Positions 1,434 to 33,448 of a stretch of 38,169 nucleotides of DNA are shown in pieces. This stretch comes from Candidatus Gastranaerophilaceae bacterium. GTDB taxonomy: Bacteria > Cyanobacteriota > Vampirovibrionia > Gastranaerophilales > Gastranaerophilaceae. The position numbers were made by a program, and so were the translations under genes. The DNA is taken from the NCBI GenBank assembly GCA_031547505.1, contig JAVBRY010000225.1:1-38169 (forward strand), given 5' to 3'. How positions within the stretch are numbered: position 1 is the stretch's first letter; every line of letters begins with the position of its first letter. The notes below the pieces were generated by a model, which saw only the letters and a program-made list of their open reading frames with translations, had not been told where the DNA came from and searched no databases.

Positions 1434-1560
1434 TGTCATCCCGAACTTGATTCGGGATCTGCACCAACTGTGCAACCCGCTTTAGGTTTTTGGATGACGT
1501 AAAACTTAAACATACAGATGCTGCAACCGGGTTGGCGCCGCAAACAAGTTCAGCATGACA
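1434..1560. repeat. GTC-hairpin repeat, doublet (A-type)
   Basis: Left unit tgtc-ATCCCGAA-cttga-TTCGGGAT. Right unit ATGCTG...CAGCAT-gaca. Termini tgtcatcccgaac / gttcagcatgaca are inverted repeats. Confidence 0.8.
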
Positions 1561-1579
1561 ATTGGTATAAGGCTAAGAT

Positions 1580-1987
1580 ATGTCAGATAAAAAAATCAAT
1601 TTAAAAATAATAACCCACGAAAAAGAAGTCTTTAACGAAGATGTCGATGCGGTGTATTCAAAAGGCGTAGATGGTGAGTTCGGTATTTTGCCCGACCACA
1701 TTCCTTTTATGAGTGCACTTGATATCGGGGTTACTAAAATTGAAAAAGATCACAATTTCGATTATATAACCACAATGGGCGGCATTTTTCAGTTCAAAGA
1801 CAATCAGGCATTGATTCTTACTGATTTGGCCGAAAAAGGCTGTGACGTTGATGTTGCCAGAGCAAAAGCTGCAAAATCAAGAGCCGAAGCAAGACTTGGC
1901 GACCCTAATGCGGAAGCCGATGCCATCAGAGCACAAATCGCTCTCGCTAAAGCAATGGCAAGACTAAAAGCCGCTGATAACAAGTAA
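1580..1987 (+). CDS. atpC: F-type ATP synthase F1 epsilon subunit
   Basis: 135 aa directly after atpD. N-terminal beta-sandwich segment (VDGEFGILPDHIPF) and Ala/Arg-rich C-terminal helical hairpin typical of epsilon. Confidence 0.85.
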   Translation: MSDKKINLKIITHEKEVFNEDVDAVYSKGVDGEFGILPDHIPFMSALDIGVTKIEKDHNFDYITTMGGIFQFKDNQALILTDLAEKGCDVDVARAKAAKSRAEARLGDPNAEADAIRAQIALAKAMARLKAADNK

Positions 1988-2007
1988 GTTCATACAATAA
2001 GTGTAAC

Positions 2008-2057
2008 GTCATTGCGAACGAGCTCGTAGAGCAGGTGTGGCAATCCAGACAATCGCA
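2008..2057. repeat. GTC-hairpin repeat (B-type, gtcattgcga...ggcaatccag)
   Basis: gtcattgcgaacgagctcgtagagcaggtgtggcaatccagacaatcgca. Same consensus as the copies at 3696 and 6881. Confidence 0.8.
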
Positions 2058-2092
2058 CTAATTATAGTTTGAAAACAACTTAATGATAGCGT

Positions 2093-2848
2093 CTATCTTA
2101 CGCAAACAGATTGTGCCGTAAGCTCTTTCTTAAGCTGTGGAACAGGTAATGTTCCAAAGTGAAAAATTGATGCTGCAAGAGCCGCATCAGCGTTTGCTTT
2201 TTCAAATACTTCAACAAAATGCCTTGAATCCGCTCCTGCGCCACCTGAGGCAATAACAGGGATGTTTGTGTTGTCGACAACAAGCTTTGTCATATCTATA
2301 TCAAACCCTGCCTGTGTGCCATCTGCGTCCATTGAGGTTAAAAGTATTTCACCAGCACCGAGCTTCTCGACTGTTTGAACCCAGTCAATGAGCTTTATGC
2401 CTGTGTTTTTTGTGCCTGCGTTTATGAACACATAAAAATCATTGTCGATTTTTTTTCCGTCAATAGCGACAACAATACATTGTGAGCCGAAGTAGTCACT
2501 CGATTCCTTGATTAAATCAGGATTTTTTACCGCCTGAGAGTTGATAGAAACCTTGTCGGCGCCTGCCATAAGGATAGAGCGCATGTCTTCAACGGTTTTT
2601 ATTCCTCCTCCGACCGTGAACGGAATGAACACCTGTTTTGCAACTGCTTCAACCATTTGCAGTGTGGTTTTACGGGCTTCGTTAGTAGCTGTAATGTCCA
2701 AAAATACCAACTCATCCGCACCTTCATCACTGTATTTTTTTGCTAAAGAGACCGGATCGCCTGCGTATTTTAGGTTTTCAAAATTGACACCCTTCACAGT
2801 CTGCCCGTCTTTTACATCCAAACAAGGTATGATTCGCTTTGCTAACAT
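2093..2848 (-). CDS. hisF: imidazole glycerol phosphate synthase cyclase subunit
   Basis: 251 aa. Canonical HisF N-terminus [15 protein letters not shown], then FLDITA, TVGGGI and ASGGAG phosphate-binding motifs. Confidence 0.95.
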
Positions 2849-2912
2849 AGTGATATCATAGCATAATCACTCTTTTAATTATTAATTTTAACAAAACACT
2901 ATATTATATTGC

Positions 2913-2984
2913 GTCATTCTGAGCCTTTAAGGCGAAGAATCTCTGGATGTTGCAAAGATCCTTCGGCGTCGCCTCAGGATGACA
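2913..2984. repeat. GTC-hairpin repeat (single long-loop unit with both termini)
   Basis: gtc-ATTCTGAG ... CTCAGGAT-gaca. The arms are complementary apart from one G-T pair. Confidence 0.75.
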
Positions 2985-3070
2985 ATTTTTTTGTAAACTT
3001 TTATTACTCAACTAACAAAAAAAAATTATTACAAATTTTATATAAACACCAGTCAATAAGGAATTGAAAC

Positions 3071-3292
3071 ATGAGAGTCAATTTTATTAACAGCTATTCT
3101 GCAAGACCATCATTTGGAAACCAATATGCAAACCAAATGCCAAAAGACAAAAATTATACAGATATGATTGTCAGACAAGAAAAAGAAATGCAAGACCTGC
3201 TCTTATCTGCTGATCGTAGTGCAGAAAAAGTTAGAGAATTAAAAGAAAAACAGGCTGAAGAACGCAGAGACTATCATTATTTAGGAGAATAA
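3071..3292 (+). CDS. hypothetical small protein (73 aa)
   Basis: ORF with AAGGA RBS about 8 nt upstream. Charged helical C-terminus. 7-nt gap to the next ORF. No recognisable family. Confidence 0.45.
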   Translation: MRVNFINSYSARPSFGNQYANQMPKDKNYTDMIVRQEKEMQDLLLSADRSAEKVRELKEKQAEERRDYHYLGE

Positions 3293-3299
3293 AAAATAG

Positions 3300-3689
3300 A
3301 TGAAAATTCAATCCATTAAGCCTTTTAATACTTCATCTAGCCAGGCTTTTAAGGCCGAACTAAAATTCCAAAATGCTGAAAAGTTTTTGACACCTGAAGA
3401 AATCGAAGGATATACAAAAAGAGCAAGCCGTTGGGGAACGCCTGAAGATAAAGTAACTATAAATATCTCAACCCAACACCTGCCCGAAGAAGAGAATGAC
3501 GGGCCTTATCAACATTTTGACGTAACTGTCCTGAAAGATGGCAAAAAAACAAAATCAGAACATACCTATTATCACTGGCACACATCTGCTGATGACACGA
3601 CAAAACTCGGATTGAATAAGATATTTATTAATTTGAACGATAAAACATTCAGAAACCTGAAAAAAGACTATGATCCGTATAAGCGATAA
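3300..3689 (+). CDS. hypothetical protein (129 aa)
   Basis: ORF with AGGAG RBS upstream, apparently co-transcribed with 3071..3292. No recognisable family. Confidence 0.5.
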   Translation: MKIQSIKPFNTSSSQAFKAELKFQNAEKFLTPEEIEGYTKRASRWGTPEDKVTINISTQHLPEEENDGPYQHFDVTVLKDGKKTKSEHTYYHWHTSADDTTKLGLNKIFINLNDKTFRNLKKDYDPYKR

Positions 3690-3695
3690 TCATTG

Positions 3696-3747
3696 CGTCA
3701 TTGCGAGCGAGCTTATAAAGCGAGCGCGGCAATCCAGGTCATCGCAA
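3696..3747. repeat. GTC-hairpin repeat (B-type)
   Basis: gtc-ATTGCGA-gcgagcttataaagcgagcgcggcaatccaggtca-TCGCAAT. Confidence 0.8.
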
Positions 3748-3795
3748 TAATTTGACAATGTAAGCATATTAAGAATAACCTTAATTTATGTTTTT

Positions 3796-3832
3796 TCTGG
3801 ATTGCTTCGTCACTGCGTTCCTCGCAATGACA
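3796..3832. repeat. GTC-hairpin repeat (B-type, inverted, partial)
   Basis: ctggattgcttcgtcactgcgttcctcgcaatgacag is the reverse orientation of ...ggcaatccag / gtcattgcgag. Confidence 0.7.
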
Positions 3833-3881
3833 GCCTATCTCAACTTCACTAAATCCGCTGTTGACTTAACACAAACTATCT

Positions 3882-4040
3882 TGTCATCCTGAAGCGTCAG
3901 GCTTATTATTTTAGATAATCTTGGAATATTCAGGATCTGACCAATCAGGCTTGAAAGCTTAAAACTTACGGTGTTAACTGGATAGATGCTGAATATTAAC
4001 AACTGTAATAACATGCAAAACCTAATGCTTCAGCATGACA
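3882..4040. repeat. GTC-hairpin repeat, doublet (A-type)
   Basis: Left unit tgtc-ATCCTGAA-(35 nt)-TTCAGGAT. Conserved core ctgaccaatcaggcttgaaagcttaaaacttacgg. Right unit ATGCTGAA-(35 nt)-TTCAGCAT-gaca. Confidence 0.85.
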
Positions 4041-4082
4041 GTATGTTGAATGCTTACTTTGCAGACAAGCGCAATGACAATT

Positions 4083-5870
4083 CTATCTCAGTTTCACCAA
4101 ATCCGCTTTTCTCATGCGCACGTTTTGAGGCGTGATTTCAAGCAGCTCATCATCTGCAATATATTCCATACAATCCTCAAGCGACATAATACGCGGTGCT
4201 TGTAAAGTCACCATAACGTCTGCACCGGAGCTTCTCATGTTGGTTAATTTTTTTGTCTTACAGATATTTATTGCCAAATCTTGCGGCTTGTTGCATTCGC
4301 CGATTATCATTCCGCGATATACACGGGTTTTCGGTACAACAAAGAAAACACCTCTGTCTTCAAATTGCCCTAAAGCGTAAGGAATAGTCTCACCGTCTTC
4401 AAATGCAATCAACGAACCGCTTCTCTGGCGAGGAATATCACCTGCATACGGCTTGTATTTGTAGAAGGTGTGATTCATAATCCCTTCACCGCGAGTCATA
4501 CGCATAAATTCGCTTCGAAAACCGATTAAACCGCGAGCAGGAATCAAAAACCTCATCTGTGTGCGGTTTCCGACAACATTCATCTCGTGCATTTCGCCTT
4601 TTCGTCCTGCAAGACGCTCAATACAACTTCCTGCATTTTCTTCGGGAACGTCGATTAAAAGATTTTCATAAGGCTCACGAAGCTCGTCATTAATTGTTTT
4701 GTAGATTACTTCGGGCTTTGAAACCTGAAACTCGTACCCCTCACGGCGCATAGTTTCGATTAGAATCCCTAAATGCAATTCACCTCTGCCGCTAACCTTG
4801 AACACATCAGTGTTTTCAGTATCTTCGACTTTTAAACTTACATTTTTTTCAAGCTCCTGATAAAGCCTTTTTCTGACCTGACGACTGGTTACGAATTTGC
4901 CTTCCTGACCGGAAAACGGACTGTCATTTACTGAAAAATTCATTTGTAATGTCGGCTCATCAATTTTTATTAAAGGCAGCGCTTGAGGATTTTCAAGTGC
5001 ACCGACTGTTTCACCGATATTGATATCTGCAAAGCCTGCAATACCGACTATGTCACCGGCTGACGCTTTTTTAATTTCTACTCTGCCAAGGTCTTCGAAC
5101 CCGTATAATTTGTTAACTTTTCCTTTGACAATCGAACCGTCAGATTTCACAAGGCTGACTTGTTCTTGAGAACTTATTGTTCCGTTAACGATTCTGCCGA
5201 TTGCGATTCTGCCGACATATTCGTTGTAGTCCAGTGTCGTTACGTGAAACTGCAAAGGCTTCGTCTCATCGCCTGTTGGCGGCTTAATATTTTCAAGAAT
5301 AGAATCCAACAACGGCGTAATATCCGGAGAATCATCCTCGAGTTCTTTCATCGCAATACCCTGCAAACTGCTTGCATAAATCACAGGAAAATCTATCAAA
5401 AAGTCATTGTCTGTCAGTTCCGTGAATAAATCGAAAATCTCATTCAAGGCATTATCAGGGTCAGCAGCGGGTTTGTCGATTTTGTTTATCACGGCAATTA
5501 CCCTGATACCCAGCTCCAGCGCCTTTGATAAAACAAATCTTGTCTGAGGCATAGGACCTTCAGCAGCATCGACAATTAACAATGCGCCGTCCACCATACC
5601 AAGCACCCTCTCAACCTCTCCGCCAAAATCTGCGTGGCCCGGAGTGTCTATAACATTGATTTTGTGCCCTTTGTAATTTACGGAAACGTTTTTCGAAAGG
5701 ATAGTAATCCCGCGTTCACGTTCAAGGTCATTGTTGTCTAAAATACAGGACTCAACGACTTCGTTGTCCCTAAATACACCGCTCTGCTTTAATATGCAGT
5801 CGACCATTGTTGTCTTGCCATGGTCAACGTGAGCGATAATGGCAATATTTCTAAGTTTTTTGTTTTCCAT
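4083..5870 (-). CDS. typA: translational GTPase TypA/BipA
   Basis: 595 aa. G1 [10 protein letters not shown]3 DTPGHADF, G4 NKID; EF-G-like domain order with the BipA-specific C-terminal region. Confidence 0.95.
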
Positions 5871-5978
5871 TGTTCTCGTTATCTTAATGTTTAGCTATAC
5901 CAATATAATATTACAGACTTTTTTTGTTGTCATTATAAAAATTTAACGCCGTCCCGCTTTCAATTTTATTTTAATTAT

Positions 5979-6017
5979 TCTCCCTCTCCTGTGAGGAGAG
6001 GGTTGGGGTGAGGTGGT
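5979..6017. repeat. GC-rich hairpin repeat (D-type)
   Basis: ctccctctcctgtgaggagagggttggggtgaggtgg. Related to the ccctcgccccttggggagaggg motif at 23200. Confidence 0.6.
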
Positions 6018-6036
6018 GATCTTTAGGACGATATTG

Positions 6037-6069
6037 CCAAACAAAAACCCCCACTATATTTGGCGAGGG
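6037..6069 (-). terminator. possible intrinsic terminator after 6090..6725
   Basis: On the minus strand: CCCTCGC-caaatata-GTGGGGG (7 bp including two G-U pairs), followed by TTTTTGTTTGG. Confidence 0.4.
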
Positions 6070-6089
6070 CTTTATGTTTATTATATTTC

Positions 6090-6725
6090 TTATATAGTTG
6101 CTAATCTTTCTGATATTATACCTGCAGAATCTCTTTGGGTGTAATATTCAGCTATAGCCTCGCTTGTGTCCACACTTCTTTCTGTGCGCATTTTTTTAAA
6201 TAAATCAGCTGTTTTAGTATCAAGCTTCTGTACAAGTTTTTCTTCATTGAATTTTCTTGATAAAGGATTTTTTAATCTAAACATATGTGAATTATTCAAA
6301 TAATCATTAATCATTTCTTTTCTTCCGTCTACAAGGCTCTTTTCATCTATTTTTAAGAAAGCTTGCAGCATTTCAAATGGATTGTTTGAATCAGCATAAT
6401 TTGATACAGGTATGCTTTTTCCACCGAGATGAGGGTTTTTTATTGAGTAACAAGCTTCATTGGTATACTTGTTTGGATATTGTTTTACTATAGAAAAACT
6501 GTCATTAAAAGAGTTCTTTATTGCGGTTAATTTTTTTGCCATTTCTTGTATTAGCTCCAGTTGACTCTTACCGGATTCTTTGAATGCTTTAGTTTTGATG
6601 GCTTGTGTCCAAATAACATCTAATTCGTTTTGAAATCCTTTAGACATTTTTATACCGAAATTCGGGTTAGCTTTTGCGTTGTTGTTAGCACTATAAATTT
6701 GAGACGGGGATTGTTGGATTTTCAT
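6090..6725 (-). CDS. hypothetical protein (211 aa)
   Basis: ORF with AGGAG RBS 7 nt upstream of ATG. Polar N-terminus, no signal peptide, no recognisable family. Confidence 0.55.
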   Translation of the reverse strand: MKIQQSPSQIYSANNNAKANPNFGIKMSKGFQNELDVIWTQAIKTKAFKESGKSQLELIQEMAKKLTAIKNSFNDSFSIVKQYPNKYTNEACYSIKNPHLGGKSIPVSNYADSNNPFEMLQAFLKIDEKSLVDGRKEMINDYLNNSHMFRLKNPLSRKFNEEKLVQKLDTKTADLFKKMRTERSVDTSEAIAEYYTQRDSAGIISERLATI

Positions 6726-6752: not shown

Positions 6753-6777
6753 GGTGTTGGGTTAAAACCCAACCTAC
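6753..6777. repeat. 25-nt hairpin repeat (E-type)
   Basis: ggtGTTGGGTTaaAACCCAACctac. A 24/25 inverted copy lies at 6948-6972. Confidence 0.8.
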
Positions 6778-6880
6778 TGAGACATTAAATCTTTATATCA
6801 GCATGAAAACACCTCAAGAATAAATTTGATGAAATTCTAATGAGGCCTTAATAAATGTTTACAAAATCATCCAACTTGCT

Positions 6881-6928
6881 GTCATTGCGAGCGACTGAAA
6901 GGAGCGTGGCAATCCAGAGAAACGCAAT
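6881..6928. repeat. GTC-hairpin repeat (B-type)
   Basis: gtc-ATTGCG-agcgactgaaaggagcgtggcaatccagagaaa-CGCAAT. Confidence 0.8.
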
Positions 6929-6947
6929 AATTAAAAAATGAAAGTCC

Positions 6948-6972
6948 GTAGGTTGGGTTTTAACCCAACAAC
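6948..6972. repeat. 25-nt hairpin repeat (E-type, inverted copy)
   Basis: gtaggttgggttttaacccaacaac, followed by a second hairpin GTCGGGTcaggACCCGAC at 6980-6997. Confidence 0.8.
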
Positions 6973-7009
6973 ATGATTTGTCGGGTCAGGACCCGACCTA
7001 CATTCTTAC

Positions 7010-8146: not shown

Positions 8147-8293
8147 TGTCATTGCCGGGTTAGCCTGTCACCCCGCTGCGCTAAATTGCTTGAGTTGTTT
8201 GATATTGTCTGAGCGGGGTCTAAATCATGCTTTTTAGATACCGCACAGCATAAAACCATTGAGTCTTGTGTTACTCAGCGCTGCGGTATGACA
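8147..8293. repeat. GTC-hairpin repeat, doublet (A-type)
   Basis: Left unit tgtc-ACCCCGCT-(34 nt)-AGCGGGGT. Right unit ATACCGCA-(36 nt)-TGCGGTAT-gaca. An extra tgtcattgccggg stub sits at the left edge. Confidence 0.8.
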
Positions 8294-8300: not shown

Positions 8301-10838
8301 TTAATCCACATCAATCGGCGAACGCTGAATGGCATTTATAGCTTCTCTTGCAGTTGCCACAAGCTCCTCGGGTACGTTCGGGACAATTGTCAGTTGTCTT
8401 AAAACATCGATTGTACGTTTGAAACAACGAACGATATCGCCTTCGCCTGCACCGATTTGCTCAATAAGCTCGTCCCACTCCCCGCCGTTTACCCAGTATT
8501 CAACCAATGGTGAATAGTAAGAATTTATGTACATCTCTGTATCGATATCACAGTCACGCTGAACGATGCTCACACGGCGCTTGATATCTTTTATACGGTT
8601 GAGCGCTTTTCTTGTTCCCTTGCTGATAGGTAAGTCGGGATACACTTCTGCACGCAGGTCTTCCGTGTTGATTGCACAAATCACAGACGCCAATTCATCA
8701 GGACCTAATTCATTTAAAACTCCGCTCAAGATAACCTCAGAGAAATAAAGTTCGTTCTCGGCACGGATTGCAGCTGTCGTCAGACCTTTTTCTGTCGGGT
8801 AACTGTTTTCGATATACCCCAGCATCTCAAGCGCCTTGGTGTGGTTTACGAACATTCTCCAATAAACATCTTTTTCGTATTCGATATTTTTTTCAAGCTT
8901 TTCAGCACGCTTTTGGAACCTGTCTAAAAGCTCTGTATCTTTAATATGTTTTTTATACAGCCTGCAAGTATCACAAGCATAGCTGTGCATTTTGTTCAAA
9001 TAGCTTTTTCTTTTTTCTTCAAAATCAAGAAACTCTTGTTCTCTTTCCTGGGCCTTATGTTTCATCTGCTTTTTGAGAGTTTTTTGAACTTTCTTGTATT
9101 GAATATAAGTATTTTTGGCTTTGTTATAGTCCAGCAAATCCTGTGTAGACAGCCCAAAATCGCATTTGAAATTAATAAAATCTTCAACAGACTTGTCTGC
9201 CTGTTCTTTTTGCAACATCAACGGTTTCAGGCGTTCTGTCGAAGAGAAGTAACCAAAACTCTTTAAAATCAACTCTTTTGATTCATCAATCGAGAATCTT
9301 TGTAATAAATTCAAAACCATTGAATATTTTGGTGAAAAGCGGCTCTCGAGTGGATTTGCATGTGCAGTAACAAGGTCAGCCACCTCTTCAGGCGACTGGA
9401 ATGAAGTTCCAACGACCGTTACATAGCCGACTTCATCCATCCCCCGGCGTCCGGCACGGCCTGACATTTGTAAGAATTCACTCGCGGTAAGGATTCTGTG
9501 CCCCGAATCCGTTCGCTTTGAAATTGAACTGATAACGGTAGAACGGGCAGGCATATTGATACCTGCGGCAAGGGTCTCTGTTGCAAAAACAACTTTTATC
9601 AAACCCTTTTGGAAAAGCTTTTCAACAAGCACCTTCCACCCCGGCAAAAGCCCTGCATGGTGCGACGCTACACCGTTTAAAATATATTCTATGTGCTTAT
9701 TGTTCTCCAAATACGGATTTTCCGCCAGATACTCAAGCGTGATTTTTTTGATTTCTCTTTGTTCATCAGGCGATACAAGACAGAGCTGTGCACATTTTTC
9801 CATCTGGTCGTCGCATTTTTTTCTCGAAAACGTGAAATAAATCGCAGGGAGCATATTTTTCTTGTGCAAAACCGCAACCACATCTCTCGCCGGAGAGCGA
9901 GGCGGCTGCTTCTGTCTGAAGCCTCGCTGTCTTGGTTCCGGTTTGATTTTTCTGTTCAACTGCCCGTCCGGTGTTAAAATAGGCAGGATATCGTTCGGTT
10001 TTGACGAATCATAATAATAAAATCTCAATGGAACAGGTCGAAAATCAGTATACACAAGCTCTGATTTTGAATGAACCGTGTTAATCCAATCTGTGAGCTG
10101 CTGTGAATTTGCAACAGTCGCCGAAAGCGCAATAATCTGAACATTCGTCGGACAGTAAATTATACTCTCTTCCCAAACCGTGCCTCTCTGCTCATCGTTC
10201 ATATAATGAACTTCGTCAAGAACCACATAGCGCACATCTTTGAGGTTATCAGATACCGAACCGAAATTCGTACCATAGAGCATGTTTCGAAAAACTTCGG
10301 TCGTCATTACAATAATCTGTGCATGTCTATTTATCGATGTGTCGCCTGTCAAAAGCCCGACATTCTCTTCGCCGTATTTGCAGGAAAAGTCGCTGAATTT
10401 TTGGTTTGAAAGCGCTTTTAGTGGTGTTGTGTAAAAAATCCGTACACCTTCTTCGAGTGCTTTATGAATTGCCATTTGTGCAATACAAGTTTTCCCTGCA
10501 CCCGTAGGTGCACATACAACAACGCTTTTCCCCTCTTTTATGTAGTGTAAAGCTTCTTCCTGAAAATCGTCTAATTTAAAATCAAATCCGTGCAATGTAT
10601 TAATCTTTTTCCTGTAACAAGAATATTCTAGCGCAAAATCCTGACCGGGTCTATTTGTTGCATATCCTAATTTATTGTTTGTAACATTATGTAAATAATA
10701 TATATAAAATATATCAATAATTTCCGAAAAAGTTTCTTTATATCTATATAAGAATTTTTTAAAAGAGAAAGAGAGATACCATGGCCGTAGATAATAACCA
10801 AAATGTATTATTGCAAAAATTGACACAACTTTACTCAT
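8301..10838 (-). CDS. Ski2/HelY-like DEAD/DEAH-box helicase with DSHCT-like C-terminal domain
   Basis: Motif I APTGAGKT, motif II DEVH, SAT, motif VI QMSGRAGRRG, and a C-terminal DSHCT-like segment (LVEYWVNGGEWDELIEQIGAGEGDIVRCFKRTIDVLRQL). The true start is probably downstream of 10838, for example TTG at about 10596. Confidence 0.9.
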   Translation of the reverse strand: MSKVVSIFAIIHFGYYLRPWYLSFSFKKFLYRYKETFSEIIDIFYIYYLHNVTNNKLGYATNRPGQDFALEYSCYRKKINTLHGFDFKLDDFQEEALHYIKEGKSVVVCAPTGAGKTCIAQMAIHKALEEGVRIFYTTPLKALSNQKFSDFSCKYGEENVGLLTGDTSINRHAQIIVMTTEVFRNMLYGTNFGSVSDNLKDVRYVVLDEVHYMNDEQRGTVWEESIIYCPTNVQIIALSATVANSQQLTDWINTVHSKSELVYTDFRPVPLRFYYYDSSKPNDILPILTPDGQLNRKIKPEPRQRGFRQKQPPRSPARDVVAVLHKKNMLPAIYFTFSRKKCDDQMEKCAQLCLVSPDEQREIKKITLEYLAENPYLENNKHIEYILNGVASHHAGLLPGWKVLVEKLFQKGLIKVVFATETLAAGINMPARSTVISSISKRTDSGHRILTASEFLQMSGRAGRRGMDEVGYVTVVGTSFQSPEEVADLVTAHANPLESRFSPKYSMVLNLLQRFSIDESKELILKSFGYFSSTERLKPLMLQKEQADKSVEDFINFKCDFGLSTQDLLDYNKAKNTYIQYKKVQKTLKKQMKHKAQEREQEFLDFEEKRKSYLNKMHSYACDTCRLYKKHIKDTELLDRFQKRAEKLEKNIEYEKDVYWRMFVNHTKALEMLGYIENSYPTEKGLTTAAIRAENELYFSEVILSGVLNELGPDELASVICAINTEDLRAEVYPDLPISKGTRKALNRIKDIKRRVSIVQRDCDIDTEMYINSYYSPLVEYWVNGGEWDELIEQIGAGEGDIVRCFKRTIDVLRQLTIVPNVPEELVATAREAINAIQRSPIDVD

Positions 10839-11830: not shown

Positions 11831-11976
11831 GCCGCCCCGGGCTTGGATTATAGAAAAATGCTTAAAGTTGAGTTTTACGGGGTCACATAAACCCAAGCTT
11901 GTTCTGTGAGATTGCGTAAGACATTCAAAGAGATAGACCGGCTACGCCGGAGACCCCGGGTCAAGCCCGGGGCGAC
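11831..11976. repeat. GC-rich-terminus hairpin element (C-type)
   Basis: Termini gccgccccgggcttgg ... tcaagcccggggcgac. The right end read in reverse is gtcg-CCCCGGG-cttga-CCCGGGG-tctcc. Confidence 0.8.
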
Positions 11977-12073
11977 AAACAACTATACAGCACGCAGAAA
12001 CTCCGTTTCTGGCTTAGCTTGCCTCTATTTAAAATGATACTTAATCATTTTAAACAGAGTTCTTAACTTTGTT

Positions 12074-13047: not shown

Positions 13048-13110
13048 TGTCATACCGCAGAGTCAGGCTTTTCAAGTTATAATAATTTTTGCTGTGCGGT
13101 ATCTGACCAT
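13048..13110. repeat. GTC-hairpin repeat, single unit (A-type)
   Basis: tgtc-ATACCGCA-gagtcaggctt...(35 nt)-TGCGGTAT-ctgacca. Confidence 0.8.
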
Positions 13111-13136
13111 TGTTGGGTTACAAATTTTTTGTTCAA

Positions 13137-13343
13137 TTATTTTTTCTTAAAATCTATTTCATAGCCTAATTCATACAAAATGATATCTAATTCAACAAGA
13201 TTTACCGTTCCTTTTTTCAATTTGGAGGATAAATTCTGCACAGAATAAGGCTTTCCTTTTTTCTTGGAAATACATTTTGCCAAATGTGTCAAAGTTACTG
13301 CACTGCCGACAGCTAATTTTCTTAATTCATTTCCTATATCCAT
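13137..13343 (-). CDS. XRE-family helix-turn-helix protein (68 aa)
   Basis: IGNELRKLAVGSAVTLTHLAKCIS ... SVQNLSSKLKKGTVNLVELDIILYELGYEIDF matches the short XRE pattern in which the HTH is followed by a ...KL.RGT...EL..I...LG motif. Confidence 0.65.
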   Translation of the reverse strand: MDIGNELRKLAVGSAVTLTHLAKCISKKKGKPYSVQNLSSKLKKGTVNLVELDIILYELGYEIDFKKK

Positions 13344-13380
13344 AATTTAAAAATACATTATTAATTGAATTTTTAATATA

Positions 13381-13424
13381 TAGTTTAAAAAATTCTTGAC
13401 TATTTTAAACTATTAATTTAAAAT
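13381..13424 (+). promoter_or_regulatory. candidate promoter with overlapping palindromic operator
   Basis: TTGACT (13396-13401), 17 nt, TAAAAT (13419-13424). A perfect 10-bp inverted repeat TAGTTTAAAA (13381-13390) / TTTTAAACTA (13403-13412) straddles the -35. Confidence 0.4.
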
Positions 13425-13456
13425 TAAAATATAAATTGAAAACGGTAACAAATTAT

Positions 13457-13681
13457 ATGACACAAAAACGAATAAAAATATCCAGAATAGAAAACCAAAT
13501 GAATGACATAGGGGTCAGAATTGATATTGTGCAAAGTCTTGTTGATATTCTTATAGAATCAATGTTTTTTAGTGACAACTTAAAACACAAAGATACTCAA
13601 AATCGTACTATTGTTTTGCAGGAAAAAATTTTAAATATGAAAAAAGAATTTTCATGTATTGTGAAAATTTTAAGAATATAA
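13457..13681 (+). CDS. small all-helical hypothetical protein (74 aa from ATG 13457; ORF track starts at TTG 13436)
   Basis: Divergent from the XRE gene at 13137..13343 and downstream of a TTGACT-17-TAAAAT promoter. C-terminal VLQEKILNMKKEF resembles the ORF at 7301. Confidence 0.4.
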   Translation: MTQKRIKISRIENQMNDIGVRIDIVQSLVDILIESMFFSDNLKHKDTQNRTIVLQEKILNMKKEFSCIVKILRI

Positions 13682-13696
13682 CTTACAGTCACAAAT

Positions 13697-13728
13697 TGTC
13701 AGATTCCGCATCAAGTGCGGAATGACAG
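13697..13728. repeat. minimal GTC-hairpin unit (short loop)
   Basis: tgtcag-ATTCCGCA-tcaag-TGCGGAAT-gacag. Lies between convergent gene ends, so it may act as a bidirectional terminator. Confidence 0.8.
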
Positions 13729-21961: not shown

Positions 21962-21990
21962 ATATAGATATAGTCATTACTTTGAATTGT

Positions 21991-22166
21991 GTCGCCGCCC
22001 CGGGCATTATCTGTGCAAAATGTCATACAAATAAGTTTTACGGGGTCTCATAAAAGCATAATTTTCTCAAGACTTGTGTCGTACTATTCCAACAATGAAA
22101 AACAAGTGTATGAGATCCCGTAAGGAACGATTGTAGTGTCATTCAATATTTAATGCCCGGGACGGC
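21991..22166. repeat. GC-rich-terminus hairpin element (C-type)
   Basis: Termini gtcgccgccccgggcatta ... taatgcccgggacggc. Internal stem TTACGGGGTCTCATA ... TATGAGATCCCGTAA. Confidence 0.8.
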
Positions 22167-22208
22167 AAAAATTGTTAATATATACTTGAAAATGCAAAGA
22201 AAAAACAA

Positions 22209-23199: not shown

Positions 23200-23414
23200 T
23201 GTCCCTCGCCCCTTGGGGAGAGGGTAGTTTTTTCGACTTGAGCAATTTTGCGAAAGTCTGAAAAACGGATGAGGGGTTTTTAGTAGATACAAATAACTTT
23301 TACCCCTCACACATTTTTCTAATGCTCAACCATGTCTCGCATTGAAAAATTTCTCACCTCTCACAAAACTTGCCATTTAGGCAACTTTTGCTCGGCAGAG
23401 TCCAAGGGGCGAGA
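23200..23414. repeat. composite GC-rich hairpin element (D-type)
   Basis: Long-range inverted termini CTCGCCCCTTGG ... CCAAGGGGCGAG. Internal stem GAGGGGT...ACCCCTC. Module acctctcacaaaa-hairpin-ttttgctcggcagag. Confidence 0.7.
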
Positions 23415-26668: not shown

Positions 26669-26852
26669 TGTCATCCCGAAGCGCCCAGCTTTGAAGATAA
26701 TAATAATTTGTCATGTTCGGGATCTTGCCAGTCAGGTTTGAAAGCTTGAAGCTTACGGTATCAATGTGACAGATTCACCCGTTCGGGTATCCTGATTCGT
26801 ACGATTCGTTCCTCATCTACGACTCAAGCCCGCATCAAGTGCGGATTGACAG
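26669..26852. repeat. GTC-hairpin repeat, doublet (A-type)
   Basis: Left unit tgtc-ATCCCGAA-(35 nt)-TTCGGGAT. Core cttgccagtcaggtttgaaagcttgaagcttacgg. Right unit CCGCA-tcaag-TGCGG-attgacag. Confidence 0.85.
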
Positions 26853-27818: not shown

Positions 27819-30782
27819 CTAAAAACTGATAACCACCGATAGGTTGTAATTACTGTTGTAATCTTTAACATCAGGACCTTTAATATATTTTAATGTTTCT
27901 TTAATACTTTGTAATACAACATTATCAATTTGCTCAGAGCCGCTTGATTCAGTGACTTGAATACGTTTGATAGTATTGTCTTTTGCTACTTCAAAAGACA
28001 CTCTGATTCTCGGGTTGTATGTCGGGTCAGTTACATAAGCCAAATCATTTTGCAGATTAATTTGCAGATTCTTACCTGAAATTTGCAGATATTCTTTGAA
28101 TGACGGATCCATTACCAGATTTTGACTTACTTCCCATGAAATTTTAGTTATCGTGATTGCTGCAGGTTGTTCAGAAAATACATTTGTCATGGATTTATTG
28201 ATATCTTGTGACAGTGCAGGTTCTTCAGGTTTTGGCGGAGCCTCTGATCCGGGCAAAGCAAACGGCGATTTTTCTTCTGAAGGAGGAGTTCCGCCTTCAG
28301 GCGTTTGAGGAGTAATTTTGTTTAATTTCATATACCATGCCGCTACACCACCGCCGACAGCCAACAGAAGAACAAGCGCGCCCATGATAATTTTGTTTGT
28401 CATTTTTCTTGCGCCTTCAATAGCAGGCTGCTCTGATATATCGAGGAGAGTTTCACCTTCTTGAAGCTCCATATTTTCATCTGCATTTTCGAACAATGCA
28501 CCGATATGCTCCTCTTCGGGTTTCTTTTCGAGCTTTTCTTCGACAGGCTTAATCGGAGTTTCTTCTTGTGGTTCATCTTCAAGCATAGACTCATACAACG
28601 CCTCTTTTGGAGTTTGTTTGTCCTGATTGTTATTATCTTCGCTCAGCATGCCCATCAGCTCATCGTCCATCAGGCCTTCGATTTCAGGGTTCACCTCTTC
28701 ATCTTCTTCAGCAGATCCTTCAGGAAGAATCTCTATGCGCGAATATTCATCAGAAGGAGCTTCTTCAATAGAAATTTCTTCTGTGGTTACTATTTCATCT
28801 TCGTCAGCTTCAAGTTCTTCCACTACTTCATTTAGCTGTTCCTCTGATTCAGGCTCTTCCTCAAGAATCTCTTCTTCTTGAGAAACCACAATCTCGTCTA
28901 TCTCAATACTCACATCCTCTATTTCAAAGGATGCGGCCGAATCTTCTGACTCTTCCAGCGTTTCCAATTTTATTTCTTCAATCTCGTCAGAAGCAGATAA
29001 CTCTTCAATTTCTTCTTCAGACAATATAAATTCTTCTTCTTTTTCCATAGTTTCTTCTGCCCCTTCCCCTGTTTCTCCTTCTTCTTGCTCTTCCCCTTGT
29101 TTTAATTCTTCCAATTCTTCAATTTCTTCCGCTTCCTCAGTTTCCACTGTTTCCACTGTTTCCTCTGCTATTTCCATTTTTTCGGCTCTATCAATGCTAT
29201 CCATTCTCGGCTCTTCTTTTATTTCAACCGGCTCCACTTCAAGAGAAATTTCTTCAACGGCTTCCTCTAAAATTTCCGTTTCTAATTCTTCTATCTCGGC
29301 AGCGCCTTCGGTTTCTATTTCAATATCCATTCTCGGCTCTTCTTCAGAAGCTTCTCCAAAAGCCTCCTCATTCGTTTCTGCGGGTATTTCCACGGATATC
29401 TCCTCAGACGCCTCCTCAATTAATTCCTCGGAAACCTCCTCAACAAATACCTCAGGCTCTTCTTCGAGTTCCGTTTCTTCAACAGTTTCCTCAACCACTT
29501 CTTCCGTAATCTCTTCCATCTCGGCTTCCATCCCGGCTTCAAATTCAACTTCAGATTTAGCAATTTTTACATCCATTGTCTCTTCAAGAACAATTATCTC
29601 AGCTTCTTCCTCTGTCATTTCATCCAATTTACATTCTTCACTTACTTTTTCAAGTTCCTCTGTTTTCCCTGTTTCCCCTGTTTCTTCTTCTTGAACCTCA
29701 GAAGTTAATTCAACATTTTCCTCAGCCTCTTTGTGCTCCTCAGTGTCCACAACATCCCCGATATCAATCAAATCGTCGCTTACATTTTCAGGTTGTACAT
29801 AAATATGTTCAACAATGGTCTCACCCGCTATTTCTCCAATCACACCCTCTGCAACCACTGTGGCAGCACCTGCGACAATGGTTTCGGAGTACATAATATT
29901 AGCCGCTTCCATGATAATGTTTTCCATATTCACGCCATCAGTGACATTATCAAAAGAAGGGTCAGGTAAAGCAGGCTCAAAAGGAGGTTCCGGCTCAATT
30001 TCCTCTATCTCCTCTTCAACAACACTTTCATTTTCAAAATCCGCAAAAGCATTCTGCTCAACTCCGCCTGTCAAAACAGTTAATGTATTGTCATCAAGCA
30101 GCTCGGGGTAATTTTTTACCTGTGAAACAATATCCTCAAACTCTCCTACATCAACGAACTCTTCCCTGCACTCTGTACACGCAAGAACATGTTTAATAAA
30201 AAATAAACTCTCACTTTCATTGATTTCAGAATCCAAAAACGCAATCGTCATTCCGCTGACTCTGTCATGTTCATGCTGGGAAATAATTCTGGGTTTAGGG
30301 AATACATTAGCTAAAGCGCCTTTCAATTCATCAAACGGAGACAAAACCTTTGTACTGTAGGCAAAATACTGATCAACACTCTTAGATTCATCCAAAATAT
30401 ATGCATCCACAAAACCCAAATGCTCTATTTCTGTGAGTGTTTTATTCAACTTTACAACCGCATAAAAATCCGGTGCAGCAGAATACTTTTTGTGAGATTT
30501 TGGAACAAAAAATGCTCCGTCTTCCCAAACCACTCTTACATCAATTCTGGCGTCGCCTATGTATAAGTCAGTCAGCTCGATATTTTGTGCAAAAGCAGGA
30601 ACTTTAAAAAGACTGTATTTATAAGAAACGTCATGCCCCAATTCTTTTAAATATGAAGCAAGCGCAAAAGCTGCTGTTGAAAATGCATAAGCACGCTTTC
30701 TTAAATCAGCGTCCTCTATTTTTGCTGATATAGTCTTAGCCATTTCTAAATTTTTATTATCTATCTCGTAACTAATTCCCAT
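27819..30782 (-). CDS. multidomain membrane protein: DUF1822-like N-domain, HxxxCxxC (ZAS-type) motif, poly-acidic tract, TM helix, Pro-rich linker, TonB_C-like domain
   Basis: 987 aa. The N-terminal 130 aa resemble DUF1822 (..ASYLKELG..DLYIGDARIDVRVV..FFVP..DFYAVVKL..EHLGFV). HVLACTEC lies at aa 198-205. Glu-rich from about aa 255 to 760. TM helix IIMGALVLLLAVGGGVAAWYM. C-terminal RIRVSFEVAKDNTIKRIQVTESSGSEQIDNVVLQSIKETL resembles TonB_C. Confidence 0.6.
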   Translation of the reverse strand: MGISYEIDNKNLEMAKTISAKIEDADLRKRAYAFSTAAFALASYLKELGHDVSYKYSLFKVPAFAQNIELTDLYIGDARIDVRVVWEDGAFFVPKSHKKYSAAPDFYAVVKLNKTLTEIEHLGFVDAYILDESKSVDQYFAYSTKVLSPFDELKGALANVFPKPRIISQHEHDRVSGMTIAFLDSEINESESLFFIKHVLACTECREEFVDVGEFEDIVSQVKNYPELLDDNTLTVLTGGVEQNAFADFENESVVEEEIEEIEPEPPFEPALPDPSFDNVTDGVNMENIIMEAANIMYSETIVAGAATVVAEGVIGEIAGETIVEHIYVQPENVSDDLIDIGDVVDTEEHKEAEENVELTSEVQEEETGETGKTEELEKVSEECKLDEMTEEEAEIIVLEETMDVKIAKSEVEFEAGMEAEMEEITEEVVEETVEETELEEEPEVFVEEVSEELIEEASEEISVEIPAETNEEAFGEASEEEPRMDIEIETEGAAEIEELETEILEEAVEEISLEVEPVEIKEEPRMDSIDRAEKMEIAEETVETVETEEAEEIEELEELKQGEEQEEGETGEGAEETMEKEEEFILSEEEIEELSASDEIEEIKLETLEESEDSAASFEIEDVSIEIDEIVVSQEEEILEEEPESEEQLNEVVEELEADEDEIVTTEEISIEEAPSDEYSRIEILPEGSAEEDEEVNPEIEGLMDDELMGMLSEDNNNQDKQTPKEALYESMLEDEPQEETPIKPVEEKLEKKPEEEHIGALFENADENMELQEGETLLDISEQPAIEGARKMTNKIIMGALVLLLAVGGGVAAWYMKLNKITPQTPEGGTPPSEEKSPFALPGSEAPPKPEEPALSQDINKSMTNVFSEQPAAITITKISWEVSQNLVMDPSFKEYLQISGKNLQINLQNDLAYVTDPTYNPRIRVSFEVAKDNTIKRIQVTESSGSEQIDNVVLQSIKETLKYIKGPDVKDYNSNYNLSVVISF

Positions 30783-30868
30783 GTTTTGTGTTTCCTTGCT
30801 TCCTTCATATAATTTTTTAAATTAATTTTATCTCTCTATAAACATAGATTACATTTTTTTAAAAAATA

Positions 30869-30897
30869 TTCCAAAATTTGAATAAAAATGTTATAAT
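30869..30897 (+). promoter_or_regulatory. candidate extended -10 promoter upstream of 31007..31411
   Basis: TGtTATAAT at 30889-30897 with a weak -35 TTCCAA 17 nt upstream. Confidence 0.3.
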
Positions 30898-31006
30898 GTA
30901 AAGAAATGTATCATGTTTATCCCTCAATATAAGCACAAGTAGCAATTTTTTTTTATCCTGCGTTTTTATATACATGAAGTGAAGTGTAAAATAGGAGTGT
31001 TTAATT

Positions 31007-31411
31007 ATGTCTACCAATTTCCCAACCGCAATTGGGTCAATGAGTCCTCAGACTATCTCAAAACCGCTTACATACAGTAAAACAGCAGCGGCAGAGACAC
31101 CTAATGCGAGTGCTCAACTATATTATAATCAGCCCAAAAAGAAAAGCCACTGGTTTAGAAACCTTGTTATTGCTGCCGTAGTGGTAGTTGGCGGTGCAGC
31201 TGCCGCAAGAAAATGGAGCAGTCTTAAAGATATTTCGCTTGAACAATTAAAAGCGAAACCTGAAGGCAACCTTGGTGCAAAAGCTAAACACTATATTGCC
31301 AAATTTGGTGAAGGTGTTATCAAAACAGCCACAGACTTTGGCAAATGGATTAGCGGCGGCAAAAAAGCAAAAGATGGCACAGAAAAAGCTGCTGAAGGCG
31401 CAACAAAATAG
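31007..31411 (+). CDS. hypothetical single-pass membrane protein (134 aa)
   Basis: One TM helix (NLVIAAVVVVGGAAAA) and a Lys/Ala-rich tail. Followed by an intrinsic terminator. Confidence 0.5.
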   Translation: MSTNFPTAIGSMSPQTISKPLTYSKTAAAETPNASAQLYYNQPKKKSHWFRNLVIAAVVVVGGAAAARKWSSLKDISLEQLKAKPEGNLGAKAKHYIAKFGEGVIKTATDFGKWISGGKKAKDGTEKAAEGATK

Positions 31412-31444
31412 ACAACATAATTAAACTTTAGGTACATAAAAACG

Positions 31445-31481
31445 ACAGTCCCCAAAAGCAATTTTAGGGACTGTTGCTTTT
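31445..31481 (+). terminator. intrinsic terminator after 31007..31411
   Basis: Stem ACAGTCCC / GGGACTGT with a 14-nt loop, followed by TGCTTTT. Confidence 0.55.
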
Positions 31482-31487
31482 AAGTGC

Positions 31488-31610
31488 GTCATTACGAGAC
31501 AAAAAATTTTGGGTTACACAATGATTATTATTTCGAAGTAATCTCATTGCAAAGAGATTGCTTCGTGAGAAAATTATTACTTATTTTCAAGCCCTATGTC
31601 TCGCAATGAC
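31488..31610. repeat. GTC-hairpin element (F-type)
   Basis: Termini gtcATTACGAGACA ... TGTCTCGCAATgac are 14-nt inverted repeats with one mismatch. Internal palindrome cgaagtaatctcattgcaaagagattgcttcg. Confidence 0.8.
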
Positions 31611-31777
31611 GTGATATTTTGCGCAATACACTAACAAATAAAAATATTACCCGCTTGGCTTAGCATAACAGATAGTGCTTTTTCCCAATGTAATAATTTC
31701 AAAAAGTGGCAAAATATAAATGAAAGGATTCAATATAGTCCTGCGGAATTAAGAATAGTTATTGGGAGTAAACTATT

Positions 31778-32113
31778 ATGAAAAAAAGTATTTTATTTTT
31801 AGCACTGCTGTTTTCAGCAGGTATGTTCAGTACCCTAAATGTCTTAACTGCATATTCACAATGTGATAATGAAGTAGGAGCCTGCAAAATTTCTGATTTG
31901 AAGAAAGAACCTCCGATAGAAGACCTGCTAAACCCAACGGCTAAATCTAATGGTTTTGCTAGCGGATTTGCGAGCGGGATACCTGATGTGAACCCGCCGA
32001 GCCTTCAATGGAGATCTAATGATATGAAAATTCAAAATGCGGAACCGACACAATCTTCGCAAAAACAATCCCTTCGTCAATTTATAGGATCATTGCTAAG
32101 ATCATCAAGATAA
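31778..32113 (+). CDS. hypothetical secreted protein (111 aa)
   Basis: GGGAG RBS and a clear Sec signal peptide (MKKSILFLALLFSAGMFSTLNVLTA). Confidence 0.5.
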   Translation: MKKSILFLALLFSAGMFSTLNVLTAYSQCDNEVGACKISDLKKEPPIEDLLNPTAKSNGFASGFASGIPDVNPPSLQWRSNDMKIQNAEPTQSSQKQSLRQFIGSLLRSSR

Positions 32114-33095
32114 TCCCTCCCACTTGCATGCCGGCTGCAAATCGCTGCATAAACTTATTGTTGTCGTAAGTCTTCGATGTCTGTTGTGCGGTAGTGGCTG
32201 CCATCAGCCTTTGTATTCTGGCATCTTCATCATCGGTAAAAGTTCTTTGAAAAACCTTTTTTTCAAGTCGGGCGATTCGGTTCGAAGCTGACTCGCCCGA
32301 GAACTTTTGACCCAGAACATTTCTTTCCATTGATTCTATGTCATAAGTTAACGGATCACTGCTGCTGCTTTGATATGCTGAATCACCTCTGGCGACTCTG
32401 TTTTTTGTGTTTTGAGGAGAGTAATAATTATACTGTCCGTTGTCATTATCCATATCGCCGCTGCCGACATTTTGCCACTGTCCGCTTCCATCTTCGGTAT
32501 AATGGATATCACGGCCTTTTTTAGGGACATAAACAACCGTCTCATCATCTGAAGGCGTAACAAGCGGTTCAGTTCCTATGGTAGACAAGCGCAAATTATC
32601 CACACGTTCGCTCAGAGTACCTTTGCTTTCTTTCTTAAACACCTGTTTTTCCAAACGTGAAAGTCGTTTGTACACATCTTCGTTGGTAAATGTTTTATTA
32701 AAAACTTTTTGCTCTATTTTATCCACAACCGGGTATTTAACATCCTTTTCGGCCTGCGGTAGTTCTTCTTCTTGCGGCGAATTCATCGAACTTGCTCCGC
32801 CAGTACTGGCGTCAGCCGTCTTTTCTCCGGCAGAAGCCACTACATCAGCCTGCACATCCACAAAGAGTTTTTGTACACGCTGGTTTGTCGTTTCTTTAGA
32901 AATTTGTCCGTATATAGCTTTTTCAAGCCTGTTTAATCGTGTGGCATTATTTTCTTTTGGGTATGTGTAGCCGAAATATGATTTTTCAATTTGGTCGATT
33001 TTTGTGCCAAGAGCGTCTGTTGCTGCGTTTGCAACTGAAGTCATACAAAATATACAAGCCAATGTTAAAATGAATTTTTTCATAGTATACTTCAC
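32082..33095 (-). CDS. exported repeat protein with C-terminal hydrophobic anchor (337 aa)
   Basis: Signal peptide ending VANA-A. Six copies of a 21-22 aa unit (hE+xhhGxxFxxExxxxRhxRL). Terminal hydrophobic segment GGIILMILAMIL. Confidence 0.6.
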   Translation of the reverse strand: MKYTMKKFILTLACIFCMTSVANAATDALGTKIDQIEKSYFGYTYPKENNATRLNRLEKAIYGQISKETTNQRVQKLFVDVQADVVASAGEKTADASTGGASSMNSPQEEELPQAEKDVKYPVVDKIEQKVFNKTFTNEDVYKRLSRLEKQVFKKESKGTLSERVDNLRLSTIGTEPLVTPSDDETVVYVPKKGRDIHYTEDGSGQWQNVGSGDMDNDNGQYNYYSPQNTKNRVARGDSAYQSSSSDPLTYDIESMERNVLGQKFSGESASNRIARLEKKVFQRTFTDDEDARIQRLMAATTAQQTSKTYDNNKFMQRFAAGMQVGGIILMILAMIL

Positions 33096-33317
33096 CCTTT
33101 TTCTGTTACTTCAAAGTAATAGATATTAAGACCTGCCTCAATTGACCGGGTTTTATAAAAGAGTAAAAAAGATAGTAAGAAAAACAGTACAAAAAAGTAT
33201 AATGAAACCCTAAAACCTTCTATAAAAGAGTTTTTAGGCATAGCCGGAAAGTATTAGATTCAAAAAAAAGATGATGAATAAAAATTGTCTGTAAAATGTT
33301 TACTATGTAAAAATAAC

Positions 33318-33448
33318 TGTCATGCTGAAGCGCTAAGCCTAAGCAGTTTTTATTAATTTTTCATGTTCAGCATCTTGCCAATTAAGTTTGGAGGCTTAAA
33401 GCTTACGATTACAGTTTGATAGATGCCGCATCAAGTGCGGCATGACAG
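33318..33448. repeat. GTC-hairpin repeat, doublet (A-type)
   Basis: Left unit tgtc-ATGCTGAA-(35 nt)-TTCAGCAT. Core cttgccaattaagtttggaggcttaaagcttacg. Right unit ATGCCGCA-tcaag-TGCGGCAT-gacag. Confidence 0.85.

Follow-up and report, generated by a model that had tools for sequence, protein, structure and literature searches.

Bacterial repetitive extragenic palindromes (REPs) have been divided into a GTAG-tagged and a CGTC-tagged superfamily (Di Nocera, De Gregorio & Rocco 2013, BMC Genomics; PMC3733652). As far as the text of this survey describes them, units of the CGTC superfamily carry an unpaired tag immediately 5' of a stem of 8–9 bp that starts with AT; this tag is CGTC, often changed to TGTC or CCTC. 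Their loops are 4–5 nt long and belong to few major sequence types, with exceptional loops in a few hosts, and their tails are short, unpaired and mostly CCA. Head-to-head dimers predominate, heterodimers are described for the types CGTC-2 and CGTC-3, and sub-families differ by complementary stem changes. The units are located between unidirectional and convergent open reading frames (ORFs), intragenic REPs are reported too, five phyla are given as hosts, and the units are described as not associated with transposase genes. The elements dRS3 of Neisseria and RPE-4/RPE-6 of Rickettsia count as CGTC-1 and CGTC-4 members. Here we describe 14 hairpin units in a stretch of 38,169 bp from a Candidatus Gastranaerophilaceae bacterium (contig JAVBRY010000225.1; the whole stretch is referred to as the window). 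We assign them to the CGTC-tagged superfamily as non-autonomous insertions whose structure is presumably read in trans, and give this assignment a probability of roughly 0.8.

All 14 units are located in intergenic DNA, a single one of them in a divergent spacer. In unit orientation they consist of an unpaired (T/C)GTC tag, an 8-bp stem, a loop, the complementary arm and the tail CT (Table 1). The tag is TGTC in 13 units and CGTC in one. Stems follow the pattern A-(T/C)-N-C-Y-G-M-W, with an A-T and then a T-A pair at the base, and their length is exactly 8 bp in all ten perfect units, nine of which start with AT and one with AC. Two kinds of loops occur: a 5-nt loop YTTRW, which reads CTTGA in 6/6 short-loop units, and homologous loops of 34–36 nt, which are found in seven units, half of the total. 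The unpaired tail is CT followed by any nucleotide (CTN) in every perfect unit, and five units have a CCA 3–5 nt further out. Besides the ten perfect units there are two of a CCCCGGG type and two decayed ones. A strict search for TGTC, a perfect 8-bp arm, a loop of 3–40 nt, the complementary arm and CT yielded the ten perfect units, compared to a mean of 0.005 (maximum 1) in 200 dinucleotide-preserving shuffles; a chance origin is excluded. An initial annotation of the window had listed part of the hairpins and had proposed a fixed flank and a fixed loop combined with at least seven different stems. The stem sequences in the window number eight. Every hairpin on that list is present at its position, and the list lacked the minus-strand units at 4040, 8293 and 1560.

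Table 1. Hairpin units and associated composites in the window (sequences in unit orientation unless a whole composite or spacer is given).
Feature	Position	Strand	Structure and remarks
E1-left	1434..1460	+	TGTC-ATCCCGAA-CTTGA-TTCGGGAT-CT; short loop; between atpD and atpC
E1-right	1516..1560	-	TGTC-ATGCTGAA-CTTGT-TT[18-nt insert]CAGCAT-CT; decayed, 6 bp still paired; closes dimer E1
E2-left	3882..3938	+	TGTC-ATCCTGAA-35 nt-TTCAGGAT-CT; long loop
E2 spacer	3939..3983		CTKRCCARTYARGYTTGRARGCTTRAARCTTACGRT; homologous to E5 and E6 spacers
E2-right	3984..4040	-	TGTC-ATGCTGAA-35 nt-TTCAGCAT-CT
E3-left	8166..8221	+	TGTC-ACCCCGCT-34 nt-AGCGGGGT-CT
E3-right	8236..8293	-	TGTC-ATACCGCA-36 nt-TGCGGTAT-CT
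CCCCGGG unit	11951..11977	-	TGTC-GCCCCGGG-CTTGA-CCCGGGGT-CT; right end of composite 11832–11977, whose left half is a long-loop CCCCG..CGGGG unit
E4-left	13048..13104	+	TGTC-ATACCGCA-35 nt-TGCGGTAT-CT; divergent region upstream of prmA
E4-right	13701..13727	-	TGTC-ATTCCGCA-CTTGA-TGCGGAAT-CT; ~600 bp from E4-left
CCCCGGG-subfamily composite	21990..22167		TGTCGCCGCCCCGGGCATTA ... TAATGCCCGGGACGGC; occupies dapF-ABC spacer
E5-left	26669..26725	+	TGTC-ATCCCGAA-35 nt-TTCGGGAT-CT
E5-right	26825..26851	-	TGTC-AATCCGCA-CTTGA-TGCGGGCT; decayed
E6-left	33318..33375	+	TGTC-ATGCTGAA-36 nt-TTCAGCAT-CT
E6-right	33421..33447	-	TGTC-ATGCCGCA-CTTGA-TGCGGCAT-CT
CCCCGGG unit	36378..36404	+	CGTC-GCCCCGGG-CTTGA-CCCGGGGT-CT; canonical CGTC tag; G.T at stem base; left end of composite ending ~36455 with ..GCAGGAATGACGAC

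It had further been claimed that the stems differ between copies and nevertheless stay complementary. In an alignment of the seven long-loop units of the window we found that 56/56 paired stem cells are Watson-Crick pairs. Two-sided changes were present in five of the eight stem pairs and one-sided changes in none, and neither the observed pairing nor the covariation score was reached by any of 500 shuffles. Slid partner columns gave 29–52% pairing. If both arms drifted independently, the probability of finding all pairs intact would be below 1e-9. Pairwise identity is 52% in the loops and 69% in the stems; since all 56 pairs are intact while the loops are only 52% identical, stem mismatches are not as frequent as loop substitutions. 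The covariation is correctly observed and statistically solid. Pairing, 5' tag and short loop are thus kept while the stem sequence varies, both in the window and across phyla (see below). This bears out the view of the initial annotation that structure, flank and loop are what is kept, and the units do belong with the REPs, as it had guessed.

The hairpins had been treated as single units. When analyzing their arrangement we found that they are halves of head-to-head heterodimers: each plus-strand unit of the window is followed by a minus-strand unit with the tags pointing outward (TGTCAT...ATGACA). The resulting composites are E1 (1434–1560), E2 (3882–4040), E3 (8166–8293), E4 (13048–13727), E5 (26669–26851) and E6 (33318–33447), and in 6/6 of them the tags are outside and the two stems are different. 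Head-to-head heterodimers are 60–180 bp long, and their variable spacer has CT at its start and AG at its end; E2, E5 and E6 share a homologous spacer of about 45 nt. The same arrangement prevails in the loci from other genomes described below, where 61 pairs within 200 nt have their tags outside, compared to 18, 10 and 9 for the other arrangements. The stems differ in 56 of these 61 pairs and the spacers of 6–77 nt again start with CT and end with AG. Around 51 dimers we detected no target-site duplication, and the flanks are not conserved beyond a T before GTC and an A after GAC.

Some composites depart from this plan. The unit E1-right is a canonical TGTCATGCTGAACTTGTTTCAGCATCT with 18 nt, GCGGCGCCAACCCGGTTG, inside its 3' arm, and this insert pairs with CAACCCG at 1473–1479. 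The region between the two E4 units (13105–13700) is very A+T-rich and contains many short inverted repeats as well as an 81-codon ORF with a TTG start (13436–13681) that has no Pfam match; this interior may be cargo, or E4 may consist of two unrelated solo units. In an Ignavibacterium, a member of the Melioribacteraceae and an alphaproteobacterium, a heterodimer together with its flank forms tandem arrays of two to five repeats (locus L044, 1527–1700; L098, 147–900; L048, 46–249), which resemble the BIME-2 clusters of E. coli.

Comparison with related contigs, which derive mostly from gut samples, revealed that the elements were inserted, since two sites occupied in the window have spacers of about 5 nt in relatives. 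The spacer between atpD and atpC measures 162 nt in the window, most of which is E1, and 5 nt in four related contigs (L124, L126, L127 and L128). Between dapF and the gene for an ABC ATPase a spacer of 247 nt holds a CCCCGGG-type composite, compared to ~5 nt in six relatives (L124–L129). The window carries 14 units in 38 kb, its relatives 0–1 unit pairs per 20 kb. The elements are non-coding, non-autonomous insertions, and this genome has accumulated them within operons and in the spacers that follow genes. A different repeat of the type GCCGGAGTG...ATATCGGCGACG shows up when near-identical gut-metagenome contigs are compared with each other: elements of ~100 nt are present or absent at the atpD-atpC junction and at the atpC-dapF junction (L125 and L129 versus L127 and L128 at 9,900–10,000; L125 and L128 versus L127 and L129 at 10,390–10,530). 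These differences are strain-level insertion polymorphism of that other repeat.

To assess the distribution beyond this genome, species-representative genomes were scanned with the pattern TGTCATNCYGMA-N(5-35)-TKCRGNATCT, in which three stem pairs are left free, and viral contigs were scanned with the same pattern. All counts from these scans refer to the matches and loci listed. We obtained at least 120 genome loci from at least 17 phyla. Among the genome matches 139 of 149 were fully complementary at the three free pairs (expected: 1/16), with ten stem variants, and the most frequent loops were CTTGT (52), CTTGA (19) and TTTAT (18). Unit-bearing taxa include groups of the candidate phyla radiation (CPR), one bin of the Nanoarchaeota (DPANN), Spirochaetota, Melainabacteria, Ignavibacteria, Bacteroidota, Alpha- and Gammaproteobacteria, Nitrospirota, Elusimicrobiota, Chloroflexota, Firmicutes and others. 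Cultured isolates are among them, e.g. Treponema saccharophilum, Cnuella takakiae and Gaetbulibacter jejuensis; the remaining loci are mostly from metagenome bins, in which contigs can be misassigned, and the case in the Nanoarchaeota is one contig of 3.8 kb. Near-identical 27-mers are found in CPR bacteria, the DPANN archaeal bin, spirochaetes, Melainabacteria, Bacteroidota, Alphaproteobacteria and true phage genomes. In the viral contigs 64 of 70 matches with a 5-nt loop were complementary at the free pairs (expected: 6%). Long-gap viral matches within conserved phage genes served as an internal negative control, and here 8 of 74 were complementary. Some viral units adjoin the gene for a head maturation protease or a tail sheath protein.

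In units not used for selecting the loci the stems were paired at 8/8 positions 59 times, compared to once with a slid partner. With tag, loop motif and tail imposed we counted 236 perfect units, 31 with one mismatch and 11 with two or three; the mismatches across phyla comprise 20 G:T, 12 A:C and 24 of transversion type. In the partner units, whose tag is not constrained by the pattern, the first tag position is C in 24, T in 22 and A in 8 cases, i.e. CGTC is about as common as TGTC. Tails outside the window are CT in 38 units and CC in 11. We did not find the long-loop form outside the window, including in 19 related metagenome loci, in collections that were not searched exhaustively. A literal search of literature text for the unit sequence returned chance primer matches only. 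In four loci a second small hairpin is located within the 5-nt loop (L007, 1387–1438, where it reads CT-GTCAGACTGAGCGTAGTCGAAGTCT-TGT; L034, 1908–1956; L103, ~1644; L105, 1971–2020), which suggests nested insertion into unit loops.

Among the described types CGTC-2, known e.g. from Sphingomonadaceae, is the closest, the window units being a TGTC-tagged, CT-tailed variant of it. In the survey's account CGTC-2 REPs share with the window units the (C/T)GTC tag, the 8-bp stem starting with AT, the 5-nt loop that is present in six of the window units, head-to-head heterodimers with variable spacers, sites downstream of genes, sub-families with complementary stem changes and the lack of a linked transposase. 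A direct connection is provided by plasmid p1 of Novosphingobium, which was matched by blastn with a spirochaete dimer as query: between two co-directional genes it carries CGTC-ATGCTGAA-CTTGT-TTCAGCAT-CCA ... TGG-ACCCTGAA-ACGAG-TTCAGGGT-GACG, whose stem and loop are those of TGTC...CT units, combined with the canonical CGTC tag and CCA tail. The dRS3 and RPE elements follow the same logic of a tag and a stem starting with AT, but have 4-nt loops or 9-bp stems and other stem sequences, and the Rickettsia elements are often intragenic. A dRS3/RPE-like unit, ATTCC..GGAATGAC, is also present in the window at ~36428–36455, and ATTCCCGC units are dense in a Rickettsia locus (L059).

Several points weigh against this assignment. 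The tails of the window units are CTN instead of the CCA described for CGTC-2, and the loops of 34–36 nt in 7/14 units fall outside the 4–5 nt described for the superfamily. Membership in CGTC-2 was judged from the survey's prose description of the family and the Novosphingobium copy rather than from consensus sequences. The excess of heterodimers is not significant when compared to random assortment (same stem in 4 of 50 pairs versus 7.5 expected, P = 0.11). The relatives with empty sites are distant (91–92% identity in AtpD, 73–83% in AtpC), too distant for exact insertion boundaries, and the host is sampled by 38 kb of its genome with 14 units. Moreover, no mobilising enzyme is known or was found in the window or in ~240 loci, so that a step through single-stranded DNA is what we infer. 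The host also extends the survey's picture, being a member of the Melainabacteria, as does the distribution over at least 17 phyla and phage contigs in comparison to the five phyla reported there.

We searched for such an enzyme in the neighborhood of the units. No transposase of the Y1/HUH type is encoded in the window. An all-against-all BLAST of ORFs within 250–400 bp of the units in 120 genome and 120 viral loci revealed no protein family recurring beside them: small clusters of ORFs are explained by related contigs, and ORFs located between two units are ordinary genes. Three individual leads were rejected. In one locus (L040) a unit is located 35 nt upstream of a GIY-YIG ORF, while three other GIY-YIG matches are weak or distant and none of them is adjacent to a unit. 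An ORF for a Mu-like transposase lies near units in L026, L174 and L208, with inconsistent unit positions. In L026, a Gastranaerophilales contig, a head-to-head dimer at 6333–6400 is in frame within the C-terminal part of this ORF (phrog_310), an intragenic REP of the kind described by the survey (PMC3733652). A single match to a REP-associated tyrosine transposase (RAYT) was found in Flavobacterium luteum (L118, 3470–5450), where a RAYT-like gene with a frameshift and a further, partial copy form a REPtron-like arrangement. Both copies are bracketed by palindromes of another REP, ACCCTCGCAGGGTT..AACCCTGCGAGGGT, and a TGTC unit stands immediately beside one of them.

This last case touches the proposal of the initial annotation that the units are linked to a RAYT/TnpA. 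REPs or REPINs of the GTAG type that are mobilised by a RAYT encoded in the genome would follow the same overall logic, with tagged hairpins in intergenic DNA that form inverted doublets; GTAG hairpins occur in the window as well (6756–7001), and some unit-bearing genomes do contain RAYT genes. We regard this explanation as unlikely. The tag is (T/C)GTC and not GT[AG]G, the tag with which the REP-associated TnpA subclasses go. The proposal is unsupported because the window lacks a Y1 transposase, no protein family recurs beside the units, the RAYT-like pseudogene of F. luteum is flanked by ACCCTCGCAGGGTT palindromes instead of TGTC units, and the survey states that no tyrosine transposase gene is flanked by CGTC units (PMC3733652); a RAYT encoded elsewhere in the genome is nevertheless conceivable. 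Still lower, as very improbable, we rate the possibility that the composites are classical miniature inverted-repeat transposable elements, i.e. elements that arose by deletion from a DDE transposon, have TGTCAT...ATGACA as terminal inverted repeats, move by cut-and-paste and contain the hairpins incidentally. Inverted ends with a TG start and a CA end, a length of 60–180 bp, presence or absence between relatives and the Mu-like ORF in three loci would fit such elements. However, the 51 dimers lack a target-site duplication and their inverted ends comprise TGTCA(T) only, units also occur singly, in tandem and in other orientations, and spacers are free in length and sequence. The dimer of L026 lies inside the transposase ORF and not at an element end, and the three Mu-like loci have no common arrangement. 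Terminal repeats acting as double strands would also give no reason for strict compensation between arms with at least eight stems in one genome.

Two further explanations address the covariation itself. The initial annotation had named a structured RNA as an alternative, and the units could primarily act in RNA by terminating transcription or protecting mRNA 3' ends, the covariation then resulting from RNA folding. This would suit their positions behind genes, at every convergent junction and within the atpD-atpC operon; composite E2 folds better than its shuffles (z = -3.9), and for REPs in general the survey argues that many are transcribed and notes G-T pairs in stems (PMC3733652). We nevertheless consider a primary role in RNA doubtful and not positively supported. 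No T-tract follows any of the units, whose tails are CTN without a run of T; a terminator scan reported no unit, its one match inside a unit being a 5-bp hairpin within a long loop (3888–3901), and there was no Rfam 15 match at the gathering threshold or with E <= 1. One-sided (G:U) changes are missing in the window, and across phyla G:T mismatches are not clearly preferred (20 versus 12 A:C and 24 of transversion type). Ending transcription between atpD and atpC would be detrimental, and neither the near-identical 27-mers in at least 17 phyla and phages nor the absence of units at orthologous sites in relatives is explained by RNA function. Complementarity might also be kept by mutation instead of selection. 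Quasi-palindrome correction is an established mutational mechanism, in which intrastrand template switching makes changes symmetrical in a single step; here one arm would serve as the fold-back template for the other, or mismatches in the hairpin would be repaired. The lack of one-sided intermediates in 56 cells of the window, the ratio of 236 perfect units to 31 with one mismatch and the missing wobble preference are expected if mismatches are erased fast. This process accounts neither for the constant parts of the unit (the tag, the A-T/T-A pairs at the base and C4 and G6 of the stem, the loop and the tail) nor for the spread across phyla, which makes it improbable as the full explanation and a contributing mechanism at most.

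Beyond anatomy, distribution and insertion polymorphism, how CGTC-tagged units such as those of the window spread is what we infer. A unit would be exposed as a single-stranded hairpin and used in trans by a structure-specific enzyme. What this enzyme would recognise is stem shape, along with the constant elements of the unit: tag, A-T/T-A pairs at the stem base, loop and tail. Stem sequence would therefore be free to vary, provided that a change in one arm is matched in the other. The difference between the two stems of a dimer could prevent its units from pairing with each other as one long cruciform, quasi-palindrome correction may contribute to the perfection of the arms, and effects on mRNA, e.g. 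a barrier at 3' ends in operons like atpD-atpC, are conceivable by-products. More tentatively, and with odds clearly below even, the CGTC/TGTC hairpins could be an orphan mobile family that is copied by a structure-specific enzyme encoded elsewhere and has moved between distant hosts, the composite with 35-nt loops representing a new lineage-specific subfamily.

Other elements read as hairpins resemble the units in part. REPs and BIMEs of E. coli and REPINs of Pseudomonas are likewise tagged hairpins read by structure, with inverted doublets of two REP types (BIME Y and Z), tandem arrays (compare L044, L048 and L098), intergenic positions and lineage-specific expansion. They differ by their GT[AG]G tag, species-specific sequences and a single-copy RAYT flanked by its own REPs. 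The ends of IS200/IS605 elements and of their palindrome-associated derivatives have sub-terminal hairpins recognised in single-stranded DNA and cause no target-site duplication. In contrast to the dimers these ends are not mutual inverted repeats and insert beside a specific tetra- or pentanucleotide, whereas the units have no asymmetric flank of this kind and no TnpA/TnpB beside them.

Apart from the repeats the window is an ordinary chromosomal stretch with 38% G+C, of which 18% is intergenic. Its housekeeping genes include atpD, atpC, hisF, typA, scpB, a Ski2-like helicase, prmA, accA, accD, an LptD-like protein, glnA, dapF, an ABC ATPase, a DnaJ-like protein and a TPR protein; no tRNA or tmRNA gene is present in the window. 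ScpB is 69% identical to that of a Candidatus Gastranaerophilales bin; together with the gut samples from which most related contigs derive, this makes the host probably a gut member of the Melainabacteria. The intergenic DNA holds additional palindromes. A second family, (C/T)GTC-ATTGCGAG...GGCAATCCAG / CTGGATTGC...CTCGCAATGAC(A/G), is located at 2007–2088, 3696–3835, 6882–6944 and 31487–31612. With its (C/T)GTC tag, AT stem start, CCA(G) tail and composites with tags outside it is probably another subfamily of the CGTC superfamily. Three hairpins of the GTAG-REP type (6756–6777, 6948–6969 and 6980–7001; GTAG-GTTGGGTT-tt-AACCCAAC and GTAG-GTCGGGTC-ct-GACCCGAC in unit orientation) form a cluster within a single spacer, beside a GTCATTGCGAG unit. 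Other G+C-rich spacer palindromes are found at 5982–6015, 23200–23228 and 23270–23309 (with CCCTCTCCtgtgAGGAGAGGG followed by TTGGGGTGAGGTG, CCCTCGCCCCTTGGGGAGAGGG and TGAGGGGT..ACCCCTCA); their motifs are presumably widespread in the intergenic DNA of many bacteria.

Taken by itself, covariation of the stems is a property already recorded for REP families, and the class to which the units belong has been described. New are the host from the Gastranaerophilales, the loops of 34–36 nt and the CT tail. Of wider interest are CGTC REPs that, with no known transposase, extend over at least 17 phyla as well as phage contigs and show clean presence and absence at operon junctions when the window is compared with its relatives. 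A genome with a dense and partly divergent population of short-loop and long-loop forms would be a useful place to seek the enzyme that mobilises them, and if the hairpins are indeed an orphan mobile family, the composite with 35-nt loops could help to trap it. Such a genome would also allow testing whether insertions change gene expression inside operons such as atpD-atpC.

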